Virus record (IMG/VR): IMGVR_UViG_2630968397_000004
Length of the DNA stretch: 17,408 nt
DNA from: a virus
Lineage: Duplodnaviria; Heunggongvirae; Uroviricota; Caudoviricetes
Strand: one strand, 5' to 3'
Part shown: positions 8,955 through 10,009 of the stretch, in pieces
How positions within the stretch are numbered: the first letter of the stretch is position 1
Layout: every line of letters starts with the position of its first letter
Position numbers and translations under genes: made by a program
The notes under the pieces: model-generated
Seen by the model: only the letters and a program-made list of their open reading frames with translations
The model's database searches: none
Told to the model about the DNA's origin: nothing

Positions 8955-9029
8955 TGGAGCGGGCAGCGGGAATCGAACCCGCATCATCAGCTTGGAAGGC
9001 TGAGGTAATAGCCATTATACGATGCCCGC
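8955..9029 (-). tRNA. tRNA-Gly (anticodon UCC), 75 nt with encoded CCA
   Basis: Reverse complement GCGGGCATCGTATAATGGCTATTACCTCAGCCTTCCAAGCTGATGATGCGGGTTCGATTCCCGCTGCCCGCTCCA folds as cloverleaf with anticodon loop CTTCCAA; recognised as glyT-like. Confidence 0.85.
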
Positions 9030-9032
9030 ATA

Positions 9033-9108
9033 TGGTGCCGACTACCGGAATCGAACTGGTGACCTACTGATTACAAGTCAGTTGCTCTGCCTGCTGAGCT
9101 AAGTCGGC
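9033..9108 (-). tRNA. tRNA-Thr (anticodon UGU), 76 nt with encoded CCA
   Basis: Reverse complement GCCGACTTAGCTCAGCAGGCAGAGCAACTGACTTGTAATCAGTAGGTCACCAGTTCGATTCCGGTAGTCGGCACCA. Perfect acceptor, D and anticodon stems; anticodon loop CTTGTAA; one mismatch in T stem. Confidence 0.75.
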
Positions 9109-9110
9109 GC

Positions 9111-9187
9111 TGGCCCACCACCGAGGACTCGAACCTCGCACCGTCAACTTAGAAGGTTGATGCTCTATCCGGATGAGCTAGTGGTGG
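9111..9187 (-). tRNA. tRNA-Arg (anticodon UCU), 77 nt with encoded CCA
   Basis: Reverse complement CCACCACTAGCTCATCCGGATAGAGCATCAACCTTCTAAGTTGACGGTGCGAGGTTCGAGTCCTCGGTGGTGGGCCA. All four stems pair; anticodon loop CTTCTAA. Confidence 0.75.
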
Positions 9188-9188
9188 T

Positions 9189-9265
9189 TGGTGGCCCTTG
9201 CTGGACTTGAACCAGCGACCTGGCGATTATGAGTCGCTCGCTCTGACCAACTGAGCTAAAGGGCC
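9189..9265 (-). tRNA. tRNA with CAU anticodon, Ile2 (ileX/ileZ-like, lysidine) or Met, 77 nt with encoded CCA
   Basis: Reverse complement GGCCCTTTAGCTCAGTTGGTCAGAGCGAGCGACTCATAATCGCCAGGTCGCTGGTTCAAGTCCAGCAAGGGCCACCA. Close resemblance to E. coli tRNA-Ile2 (GCGACTCATAATCGC core and identical T arm). Separated from tRNA-Arg by 1 nt. Confidence 0.75.
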
Positions 9266-9353
9266 GGAGGCAGAATAATAACCATATGTCATCACATCTG
9301 CAAACTCATCTGACCACCAGCACGTTTAACGTCCTGTGCCGTTTTTCAGGTAT

Positions 9354-9375
9354 AAAAAAACCCGCATAAAGCGGG
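9354..9375 (-). terminator. Rho-independent terminator (tR'-like) about 80 bp downstream of the Q-like gene
   Basis: Hairpin CCCGC-ataaa-GCGGG at 9361-9375 with A7 at 9354-9360 on the plus strand, i.e. a U7 tract after the hairpin on the minus strand. Confidence 0.7.
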
Positions 9376-9454
9376 CTCTTTCAAATGTCCATGTCTGCTA
9401 TTCGCCTCGCGGTACAGCTTTGCGAAGCGTACAAGAATTGAAGCAGTTTTTACG

Positions 9455-10009
9455 TCAAAAAGCAATAACTTTTTTCTCTATACCAAAAGCCATAACCATT
9501 GGTTTGTACAAAATAAATTCTGCCACCTTTAGCCAATGCTCAATGCGTCTTTCACAGGTTCTTAAACTCCATTTCGGGTGTGCATCATTCAGCAGTTCAG
9601 CCATTTTGCGTTTGGTCATCCCCCGCCCCTCATACCGTTGCCGAAGGACGCTAATCAATCCTGGATGCTCTGCCAGCACCTCACTTATGACCCGATCAAT
9701 ACATAACGCCTCTGCATCAGTACAATGCGCCAGCCAGCTCTTTTGCTTACCGTTAATCATATCCCGCAAAAAAGCCTCAAGTTCAGACTTGTTCAGACCT
9801 GCTTTTTTCATCCTCCGGAGCGCCTCGTTAATTGCCGTTTTTGTCAGCTTTTTAGAGGTCAACATCAGGTTAAACATATTCCCCGTCTTACCGCCACCAA
9901 TATACGACCAGCGCCCCCACATACGTAGTTTTCCCTGAATCCAGACACTTTCCAGCGTGGTGAGACGAAGGTGTTCTCCGCTTTTTCCTGTATTCGTTGG
10001 GTAAATCAT
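9455..10009 (-). CDS. putative late-gene antiterminator Q-like protein (184 aa)
   Basis: In-frame ATG (MIYPTNTGKSGEHLRLTTLESVWIQGKLRMWGRWSYIGGG...) with AGGAGG Shine-Dalgarno 8 nt upstream. Start overlaps the YbcO-like stop (ATGA). Position is immediately upstream of the tR'-like terminator and phage tRNAs, as for Q in Stx-type lambdoid phages. Track ORF start at 10129 is over-extended. Family call is from positional logic and partial sequence recollection. Confidence 0.6.
   Translation of the reverse strand: MIYPTNTGKSGEHLRLTTLESVWIQGKLRMWGRWSYIGGGKTGNMFNLMLTSKKLTKTAINEALRRMKKAGLNKSELEAFLRDMINGKQKSWLAHCTDAEALCIDRVISEVLAEHPGLISVLRQRYEGRGMTKRKMAELLNDAHPKWSLRTCERRIEHWLKVAEFILYKPMVMAFGIEKKVIAF

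Follow-up and report, generated by a model that had tools for sequence, protein, structure and literature searches.

We found that the four tRNA genes in the window (the whole 17,408-nucleotide stretch of DNA that was analysed) most probably constitute a tRNA module of a lambdoid late-regulatory region, which lies between the Q gene with its terminator and the holin-lysozyme-Rz genes and supplies tRNAs for rare codons. We give this reading a probability of about three in four. The window is the IS-riddled remnant of a lambdoid prophage in a chromosome of the Shigella/EIEC type, and its tRNA module is intact. Judged by sequence identity, the module is a mosaic: genes one and two fall into the phage lineages of ileZ and argN, which are known from Shiga-toxin (Stx) phages, and the last two are copies of the host genes thrU and glyT.

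The tRNA genes and the regulatory elements upstream

The features of the locus, from the Q-like gene towards lower coordinates, are the following.

10009-9455, minus strand: Q-like late antiterminator gene, 184 aa (DUF1133 / phrog_753), from Pfam and PHROG matches
9465-9437, minus strand: candidate late promoter PR', TTGCTT-17 nt-TTCAAT, overlapping the Q stop codon, proposed from reading the sequence only
about 9383-9353, minus strand: intrinsic terminator, tR'-like, GAGCCCGC-UUUAU-GCGGG followed by U7, from RNA folding
9304-9275, minus strand: putative sigma-70 promoter pT, TTTGCA/TTGCAG, 17-18 nt, TATTAT, from promoter scan, alignment and conservation
9265-9189, minus strand: tRNA with anticodon CAU, Ile2 type (ileZ homologue), from ARAGORN, Rfam (70.5 bits) and PGAP
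9187-9111, minus strand: tRNA-Arg(UCU) on an argN-type scaffold (C1:G72, discriminator G73, A20), from ARAGORN and Rfam (56.4 bits)
9108-9033, minus strand: tRNA-Thr(UGU), copy of host thrU, from ARAGORN and Rfam (69.8 bits)
9029-8955, minus strand: tRNA-Gly(UCC), same as host glyT, from ARAGORN and Rfam (64.9 bits)
8954-8773, minus strand: structured spacer, which precedes the holin in intact relatives and is cut here by IS600, from colinearity and folding
7688-8772, plus strand: IS600 copy that lacks about 176 bp internally and whose orfB is broken, from Pfam (HTH_Tnp_1, HTH_21, rve, rve_3)
7209-7687, plus strand: partial IS600, its first 479 bp, in tandem with the copy at 7688-8772, from terminal sequence comparison and BLAST
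6869-7208, minus strand: C-terminal remnant of the tail tape-measure gene, from PHROG matches to the C-terminal ends of the profiles only
6869 down to 1143, minus strand: tail genes M, L, K, I and J, from Pfam

In the 17.4-kb window ARAGORN called four tRNA genes and no more, each of them on the minus strand, and the Rfam tRNA covariance model, whose gathering score is 29 bits, matched all of them with E values of 1e-10 to 1e-14 (Infernal). Identical sequences in RefSeq genomes are annotated by PGAP as tRNA-Ile, tRNA-Arg, tRNA-Thr and tRNA-Gly without pseudogene flags. Minimum-free-energy folds of the single tRNAs did not give a cloverleaf in every case, but we relied on the covariance-model scores because such folds are normal for tRNAs. 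Reading the sequence in transcription order, the genes are separated by 1 nt (A), 2 nt (GC) and 3 nt (TAT), and all four encode the terminal CCA. The preliminary description, made without database searches, had proposed four tightly packed tRNA genes (CAU, UCU, UGU and UCC) with these short spacers and encoded CCA ends, and ARAGORN, Rfam and PGAP together with the sequence itself agree with it. Its concern that the Thr or Arg gene might be dismissed as a pseudo-tRNA did not materialize, since they score 69.8 and 56.4 bits and carry no PGAP pseudogene flag.

The CAU tRNA is identical to ileZ of phage 933W at 74 of 77 positions (96%), including an A27.C43 mismatch that tops the anticodon stem and is flagged by cmscan. 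It shares 92% identity with K-12 ileY, from which its acceptor stem does not differ, and 90% with ileX. As its body is related to ileX/ileY and not to tRNA-Met, and PGAP names it tRNA-Ile, the gene is by sequence of the Ile2 type. The tRNA-Arg(UCU) begins with the pair C1:G72, and has no non-canonical pairs in the Rfam model alignment. Its identity is 79% with 933W argN (anticodon UCG), 73% with host argU and 60% with argO. The A-C mismatch in the Ile2-like gene and the C1 of the tRNA-Arg had been pointed out before; both are present and, judged from these alignments, are family traits of ileZ and argN rather than marks of decay. The tRNA-Thr(UGU) matches K-12 thrU at 74 of 76 positions (97%), the two changes being U to C in the D loop, and the tRNA-Gly(UCC) matches K-12 glyT at all 75 (100%). 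Alignment to ileX/ileZ, argN and glyT had been proposed at the outset as a check, and it showed homology; that the Thr and Gly genes copy thrU and glyT almost exactly had been overlooked.

The gene upstream of the array encodes a protein that hits DUF1133 (PF06576) with 355.8 bits and Phage_antitermQ (PF06530) with 28.4 bits against a cut-off of 26 in Pfam. It also matches phrog_753, 'anti-termination protein Q-like', with E=9e-80, and shows a weak match to the solved Q21 structures (6P18/6JNX) with E=4e-4; its homologues are labelled antitermination protein Q in phage records. By sequence, the product of 9455-10009 is a member of the Q antiterminator family. The candidate PR' was not called by a consensus promoter scanner, and its -10 hexamer is weak, without the A at position 2. 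Its spacing and hexamers are nevertheless kept at a locus with a diverged DUF1133-type Q (L074, TTGCAA-17-TTCAAT), and its overlap with the Q stop codon is the position of the annotated PR' in 933W.

The terminator hairpin has a folding energy of -18.7 kcal/mol (z=-4.87), and none of 200 shuffled sequences was equally stable. It resembles the terminator annotated 3' of PR'/qut in 933W, and it is within this terminator, at 9362-9365, that other Shigella copies begin to be homologous to the window. A simple terminator scan of 8600-10300 called none, but we set this negative aside because the RNA fold shows a clear hairpin. A Q-like gene followed by a strong intrinsic terminator before the tRNAs, as previously described, was therefore found again by profile matches and by folding. 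The putative pT ends 10 nt before the first tRNA, has 9 of 12 matches in the promoter scan, and aligns with the 933W annotation 'pT; putative tRNA promoter'. In 40 distinct upstream sequences taken from 118 loci, the most conserved columns upstream of the arrays were TTGC and TTATTAT, even where the flanks were unrelated. A promoter-like pT element directly upstream of the first tRNA is, by these alignments, conserved in ileZ-led arrays.

Relatives, prophage decay and the origin of the array

In intact relatives with the same array, a class II holin, lysozyme and Rz follow directly downstream. In the window, tRNA-Gly is followed by 182 nt that run colinear with the spacer before the holin of RMDEC364 (L001) up to GGATAGAGTG, at the IS600 end; past that point, RMDEC364 continues with GCGCCCGC...GCGGGC-T7, a terminator, and then the holin ATG, both of which are absent in the window. 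The spacer at 8773-8954 is 94.9% identical to phage PhiR47_1 and folds with -61.4 kcal/mol (z=-4.1). It is abutted by the right end of the IS600 copy at 7688-8772 (...CAGTACACCTCA), whose ends were judged against the complete IS600 at 15654-16917 in the window and whose internal gap was shown by BLAST against another locus (L008). On the other side, the left end of the partial IS600 at 7209-7687 truncates the tape-measure gene, beyond which the tail genes follow with Pfam matches to Phage_min_tail, Phage_tail_L, NLPC_P60, Lambda_tail_I and the domains of tip attachment protein J. We found no holin by tblastn and no lysis gene in the 17.4-kb window, because IS600 cuts the locus 182 nt past tRNA-Gly. 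Judging from the aligned relatives, the lysis, head and most tail genes were lost next to IS600, and the right IS600 end marks the deletion. The exact junction of IS600 and spacer was absent from species-representative genomes, which probably reflects that this collection subsumes Shigella under E. coli. When the Ile2-Arg junction was used for a second scan, S. flexneri SFBU1023 and ECMA0423 were hit. One EIEC relative has a 680-bp gap between tRNAs and holin, in which we looked for an overlooked gene or RNA and found nothing convincing.

At least 80% of the array was present in 601 of 5,426 complete E. coli genomes (about 11%). Among 120 viral contigs carrying an ileZ-type tRNA, the array type of the window was one of several ileZ-led arrays, and the tRNA-Arg(UCU) sequence was identical in all six contigs with the order Ile2-Arg(UCU)-Thr-Gly. 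The Ile2-'Lys(UUU)'-Thr-Gly arrays of prophages such as PhiR47_1 and vB_EcoS-689R5 share the four-gene architecture, the Thr and Gly genes and the pre-holin spacer, at an overall identity of about 93-95%. Their second gene differs: it has the anticodon loop CCUUUAA (C33, UUU) and an A51.C63 mismatch where the window has a clean tRNA-Arg(UCU), and some annotations do not call it. C33 and UUU on the Arg scaffold, which mark the common variant of the array, count as decay of that gene. In RMDEC364 it is the Gly gene that decays: its anticodon is now UAC, its acceptor stem is damaged, and CAA stands in place of CCA. At two further loci (L011, L014) only one of the four tRNA genes is left after an IS insertion. 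Because individual genes decay in some relatives, not every copy of the array is under strong selection. Other lambdoid phages are reported to have tRNAs in the same genomic position downstream of Q, namely SfI, Sf6, ST64T, PS3 and phage 21 (PMC3636060). A codon-supplement role has been argued for ACA and Thr(UGU) in SfI (PMC3636060), although the SfI complement, Asn and Thr, differs from the Ile2, Arg, Thr and Gly of the window.

The layout had at first been likened to that of Stx phages, with the missing toxin gene taken as a peculiarity. What stands of this comparison is that the array is phage-borne, follows Q and a terminator, and has ileZ, argN and pT homologues in 933W. Like the ileZ-argN-argO array of the 933W/VT2-Sakai type, it lies after Q and terminators and, in intact relatives, before the lysis genes; its first gene is of the ileZ type (96%, with A27.C43), its second is built on the C1 scaffold (79%), a short pT is directly upstream, and both arrays decode rare codons. 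However, it has four genes instead of three, UCU instead of UCG in the second gene, thrU- and glyT-derived genes in place of argO, and spacers of 1-3 nt against 9-13 nt. Its Q is of the DUF1133 type, and neither stx downstream nor the upstream DNA methyltransferase gene is present. Nor is the layout specific to Stx phages, as stx came next in just 5 of those 30 ileZ-argN-argO arrays of the viral contigs whose downstream sequence was long enough, and in none of the other ileZ-led array types. The remark that no toxin gene follows is correct, but this is the normal state because intact relatives with the same array run straight from the tRNAs to the class II holin, lysozyme and Rz, without stx in the interval between array and holin, and the spacer is colinear with theirs. 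In the window the deletion associated with IS600 adds to it. Nothing can be read from the lack of a toxin gene behind tRNAs of this kind.

Two other origins have to be weighed at this point. The array could be the relic of an Stx-converting phage without stx, marking the old stx locus in the manner of the IS600-flanked stx region of S. dysenteriae type 1. The homology of ileZ, the argN-type scaffold and pT to the 933W array would agree with this, as would the 933W-like contexts of some EIEC copies, which have a Q933W-type Q and the DNA methyltransferase gene. IS600 lies directly downstream of the spacer of the window's array, and we counted as favourable that in S. dysenteriae 1 stx likewise has IS600 on its upstream side (PMC7819885). 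On the other hand, StxA2 and StxB2 queries gave a best E of 0.24 by tblastn, with no remnant of stxA or stxB in the window, and the 182 nt past tRNA-Gly are occupied up to IS600 by the pre-holin spacer of stx-free relatives. The Q of the window is not of the 933W type, and most ileZ-led viral arrays lack stx. On these four grounds we rejected a descent from an Stx phage, which we consider very unlikely. An ordinary host chromosomal tRNA operon beside a prophage has hardly any probability at all. The thrU-tyrU-glyT-thrT-tufB operon is the likely source of the Thr (97%) and Gly (100%) genes, and this identity is what could suggest it. But tyrU, thrT and tufB are absent, the operon's spacers of 8-116 nt have given way to 1-3 nt, and the flanks are phage and IS genes. 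In intact prophages, as in sequenced phage genomes, the array also stands between Q and holin, and it recurs at several loci per genome; gene content, spacers, context and multiple loci refute a host operon. The preliminary description had left this alternative to be checked, and the Q-to-holin context in relatives settles it in favour of a phage-borne array.

Codon usage and the possible role of the module

The codons of prophage genes (11,933 from the window and two other loci, L001 and L015) were compared with those of 40 core genes of K-12 (15,040 codons). Enrichment in the prophage was highest for six codons, AGG (8x), AGA (5.5x), CGG, AUA (3.3x), ACA (2.3x) and GGA (1.9x). The four tRNAs read five of these six (AGG, AGA, AUA, ACA and GGA; Fisher p 7e-7 to 1e-16), where the host sample consists of 40 genes from one region of K-12 and the enrichment is a correlation. 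This match fits codon supplementation.

We suggest that the conserved sigma-70 promoter pT would serve the array as a promoter of its own, and because pT sits just past the terminator, expression may be possible in the lysogen. On induction, Q-modified RNA polymerase would read through the terminator into the array. In the resulting precursor, with its spacers of 1-3 nt, RNase P would cut each 5' end and the short 3' trailers would be trimmed to the encoded CCA, while host TilS would convert C34 of the CAU tRNA to lysidine and thereby allow it to read AUA. The promoter activity, the RNase P route and the formation of lysidine are what we infer. The cell would then hold more decoders for AUA, AGA/AGG, ACA and GGA, codons that are rare in the host and enriched in the prophage, and genes of the phage, like others gained by horizontal transfer, could be translated more quickly. 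The benefit of the Gly and Thr genes would be one of dosage only, because they are identical to glyT and nearly identical to thrU.

Besides codon supply, two other functions were considered. In some other phages, tRNAs are known to take part in counter-defence, and those of the array might likewise replace host tRNAs cut by anticodon nucleases of the colicin, PrrC, PARIS or retron type. The anticodon stems of Ile2 and Arg do differ from the host genes, by A27.C43 in the former and by another stem in the latter. But the tRNA-Gly is glyT and the anticodon arm of the tRNA-Thr is that of thrU, and because of this the two could not escape a nuclease directed against the host tRNAs. We know of no anticodon nuclease that targets the combination of Ile2, Arg(UCU), Thr(UGU) and Gly(UCC), and the set closely fits the rare codons enriched in the phage, so that only a small chance is left to counter-defence. 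A domesticated module that benefits the host, kept in several copies in Shigella/EIEC to help translate the AT-rich virulence genes of pINV and of incidental phage origin, is a possibility we take more seriously, though we still doubt it. Its favourable evidence is the multi-copy association of the exact Arg(UCU) variant with ipaB, the presence of three copies in S. flexneri SFBU1023 and again in ECMA0423, the persistence of the tRNAs inside IS-truncated prophages, and the agreement between the codons of the array and those enriched in ipa-mxi-spa, all described below. However, the association ignores phylogeny and could reflect hitch-hiking on a phage family found in Shigella/EIEC only, or gene conversion among resident prophages. 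A target of 311 nt is easily missed by IS elements through chance, and some copies were destroyed by IS (L011, L014) or are decaying (L001). We retain codon supply by a phage late-region module as the preferred reading.

Confinement to Shigella/EIEC and meaning of the array

Of the 5,426 complete E. coli genomes, nine are ipaB-positive (EIEC), and all nine have the exact Arg(UCU) variant, with 2-5 copies each; it occurred in one of the 5,417 ipaB-negative genomes. A version with 94-95% identity was present as a single copy in six other genomes. S. flexneri SFBU1023 and ECMA0423 carry three copies of the array each. In the window, as in all three S. flexneri copies, nearby phage genes are truncated by IS elements and all four tRNAs are still called. 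The ipa-mxi-spa genes of pINV, compared with the K-12 sample, are enriched in AGA (15x), AUA (13x), AGG (7x), ACA (3.9x) and GGA (2.5x).

The array is already annotated in public records and its type of feature is common in phages. The idea that foreign genes draw tRNAs for rare codons from such arrays is old, and as an ordinary phage tRNA module the finding itself matters little. The array is useful, however, as a marker for the late-regulatory region of a decayed prophage. The thread of note is the confinement of the exact variant, in multiple copies, to Shigella/EIEC genomes. Tentatively, and against the odds as we see them, the distribution and codon content of the exact array may indicate a multi-copy module specific to Shigella/EIEC, which would outlive its prophages by supplying the tRNAs most limiting for the type III secretion genes of pINV. 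If this is true, phage tRNA arrays would be a fitness factor, or one that supports virulence, of the invasive pathotype. If selection rather than shared phage ancestry lies behind the confinement, it would link prophage tRNAs to the expression of the invasion plasmid.

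Composition and ancestry of the array

Exactly four tRNA genes were called in the window when ARAGORN was run on its whole length, all of them on the minus strand, and each exceeded the gathering score of 29 of the Rfam tRNA covariance model.

tRNA genes of the window (ARAGORN calls with Rfam scores)
9189-9265, minus strand, tRNA with CAU anticodon, 70.5 bits
9111-9187, minus strand, tRNA-Arg (UCU), 56.4 bits
9033-9108, minus strand, tRNA-Thr (UGU), 69.8 bits
8955-9029, minus strand, tRNA-Gly (UCC), 64.9 bits

The four-tRNA cluster of the preliminary description is therefore confirmed. 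The possibility raised there, that the Thr and Arg genes were pseudo-tRNAs, finds no support in these scores or in RefSeq genomes, in which the identical sequences are labelled tRNA-Ile, -Arg, -Thr and -Gly and none of the four is marked as a pseudogene. The finer details also hold on the minus strand: the genes are separated by 1, 2 and 3 nt, each of the four encodes CCA, an A27.C43 mismatch tops the anticodon stem of the CAU tRNA, and C1:G72 is the first pair of the tRNA-Arg.

We compared the genes with the real tRNA sequences of K-12 and of 933W, a Stx-converting phage with an ileZ-argN-argO array. The CAU tRNA is 96% identical to 933W ileZ, which shares A27.C43, versus 92% for ileY and 90% for ileX, both with G27.U43 at this place. 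The tRNA-Arg is 79% identical to 933W argN (both begin with C1; anticodon UCU versus UCG), but only 73% to host argU and 60% to argO. The tRNA-Thr equals host thrU except for two D-loop changes (74 of 76 positions identical), and the tRNA-Gly matches host glyT at 75 of 75. Likeness to ileZ and argN together with near-identity to thrU and glyT shows the array to be a mosaic, in which two tRNAs are of phage lineage and two were captured from the host; tyrU and the long spacers of the host operon have been removed. A27.C43 and C1 are lineage traits rather than damage.

Relatives carry other versions. The second gene of the common version has the anticodon loop CCUUUAA (anticodon UUU, with C33 where U33 is near-universal), and its T stem contains an A51.C63 mismatch. 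It is found at 3095-3171 of phage PhiR47_1 (L016), in 13 of 120 viral contigs among the matches listed and in most of about 590 other array-bearing E. coli genomes; it is well conserved (identical in 8 of the 13 contigs) and is called tRNA-Lys by some pipelines and left uncalled by others. In the EIEC copy of E. coli RMDEC364 (L001 9184-9255), the glyT-derived gene is annotated as tRNA-Val and has the anticodon UAC, CAA replacing CCA and a 1-nt acceptor-stem deletion; it is probably a decaying copy. In two loci with the Q protein of the window (L011 and L014, ~10818-10824), an IS element is inserted directly at the 3' terminus of the Ile2 gene, and the Arg, Thr and Gly genes are missing.

Predicted expression signals and the lambdoid layout

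Directly upstream of the array, the same strand carries a Q-like gene (9455-10009). Its product has a strong match to Pfam DUF1133, scores above the Phage_antitermQ threshold, hits PHROG 753 ('anti-termination protein Q-like') at E=9e-80 and is weakly matched by the solved Q21 protein. About 70 nt past the stop codon of this gene, a GC-rich hairpin is followed by U7 (-18.7 kcal/mol, z=-4.9 by RNA fold), so a Q-like gene and a strong terminator do precede the tRNAs as described. A weak candidate for the late promoter PR' (TTGCTT, 17 nt, TTCAAT) overlaps the stop codon and is retained in one diverged relative. A promoter-like element (TTTGCA/TTGCAG, 17-18 nt, TATTAT) sits between the terminator and the first tRNA and aligns with the 933W-annotated 'pT; putative tRNA promoter'. 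In a comparison of 40 distinct upstream sequences (118 loci), no columns are better conserved than its two hexamers, even where the further flanks are unrelated. In the lysogen, the array would be transcribed from pT, and on induction transcription from PR' may reach it by Q-mediated read-through. RNase P would split the tightly packed precursor, the 3' ends then being trimmed to the encoded CCA, and TilS would make lysidine on the CAU tRNA.

At least 80% of the array plus promoter occurs at one place in 601 of 5,426 complete E. coli genomes, and the array is also present in several sequenced phages. At least 120 viral contigs carry an ileZ-type tRNA.

Array types in viral contigs, among the matches listed
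ileZ-Arg(UCG)-Arg(UCU), 55
ileZ-Arg(UCU), 29
ileZ-'Lys(UUU)'-Thr-Gly, 13
ileZ-Arg(UCU)-Thr-Gly (the window type), 6
other types, a few

The arrangement had been viewed as a Stx-phage-like layout without stx, an interpretation that is partly supported. The ileZ and argN identities and the aligned pT agree with it, and the claim that no toxin gene follows stands, as no remnant of stx or a holin was found in the window. However, stx follows only 5 of 30 Stx-type arrays with enough downstream sequence (among the matches listed), a class II holin, lysozyme and Rz come next in intact relatives sharing the array, and tRNAs downstream of Q are stated for SfI, Sf6, ST64T, PS3 and phage 21 (PMC3636060). 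Therefore, the layout is an ordinary lambdoid one, truncated here by IS600, and the array, a phage module of a known type, is already annotated in public records. In RMDEC364, the spacer runs colinear with that of the window as far as the IS600 end, after which a second terminator and the holin start follow. Some EIEC copies (L145 20246-20927, L002 8320-9002) have an unannotated gap of ~680 bp from tRNA-Gly to the holin, where stx sits in Stx phages; it contained no convincing ORF (longest 98 aa) and no Rfam match.

The truncated prophage

The region upstream of Q contains nin-region genes (YbcO, DUF1367/NinB-like) and a hok/sok locus, together with two IS1 copies, DUF551 and HNH genes and one complete IS600. 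On the other side, a structured spacer of 182 nt lies 3' of tRNA-Gly and is followed by the right end of an IS600 at 8772. There are three IS600 copies in the window.

IS600 copies of the window
15654-16917, complete IS600
7209-7687, 5' fragment of 479 bp
7688-8772, copy with an internal deletion of ~176 bp, directly after the 479-bp fragment

The ~176-bp deletion is absent from the close relatives L008 and L012. Past the tandem fragments, the tape-measure gene remains only as its 3' end, with tail genes M, L, K, I and J after it. Because the sequence resumes inside the tape-measure 3' end after IS600, the prophage has lost its lysis cassette, terminase/head genes and most tail-shaft genes. 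Several NCBI chromosomes are 99.9% identical to the window, and the remnant there adjoins ttcA and dbpA; no end-to-end match was found among complete E. coli RefSeq genomes. The IS600/IS1 load and the Arg(UCU)-variant matches point to a Shigella-type genome as the probable home of the window.

Other features were observed along the remnant. The tRNA-Gly spacer (8773-8954, minus strand) forms three strong hairpins when folded (-61.4 kcal/mol, z=-4.1) and is conserved in phages with the array upstream of the holin gene; it may serve in processing, in termination or in control of the lysis genes. The sok antitoxin RNA of the hok/sok locus, which belongs to the nin region (Rfam RF01794, 118 bits; 12241-12415, minus strand) is immediately adjoined by an IS1 copy at 11231-12000. 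The tail tip gene J (1143-4484, minus strand) encodes 1113 aa, versus 1159 aa in close relatives, to which homology ends at 1149. An open frame of at least 361 aa (1-1148, minus strand) runs off the window edge and is 95-96% identical to 'recombinase family protein' genes of other E. coli.

Proposed codon supply and the Shigella/EIEC association

We set 11,933 prophage codons (from the window, L001 of RMDEC364 and the locus L015) against 15,040 codons taken from 40 core genes of K-12. The six codons with the greatest enrichment in the prophage set were AGG, AGA, CGG, AUA, ACA and GGA. Five of the six are read by the four array tRNAs, and CGG is read by 933W argN (UCG). This match supports the classical idea of an array that adds to the supply of rare-codon decoders for phage and other foreign genes; codon supply for ACA is argued in the phage SfI paper (PMC3636060).

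The exact variant was traced with a 101-nt segment over the Arg(UCU) gene and its junctions (9100-9200). At 100% identity it occurs in 10 of the 5,426 complete E. coli genomes, with 2-5 copies apiece, and six further genomes have a single version at 94-95%. All nine genomes with ipaB, a marker of the invasion plasmid pINV, are EIEC and belong to these ten; one of them, CFSAN029787, is an EIEC O96:H19 strain (PMC10470518). Among species-representative genomes, three copies each are present in S. flexneri SFBU1023 and in ECMA0423 (L138-L143), with all four tRNAs called in every copy; the three S. flexneri copies lie in prophages truncated by IS elements, and the Q genes upstream of them are of at least two different types. 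Compared with the K-12 sample, the type III secretion genes ipa-mxi-spa of pCP301 show enrichment of AGA (15x), AUA (13x), AGG (7x), ACA (3.9x) and GGA (2.5x).

It is possible that selection retains the exact array in Shigella/EIEC, which would fit the distribution of the variant, the intact tRNAs in IS-truncated prophages and the codon match of pINV. However, some array copies are destroyed or decaying, and we consider such retention unlikely, at roughly one chance in five. Hitch-hiking on a phage family restricted to Shigella/EIEC hosts would fit the association equally well, and so would gene conversion among resident prophages. We regard the Shigella/EIEC association as one modest lead.
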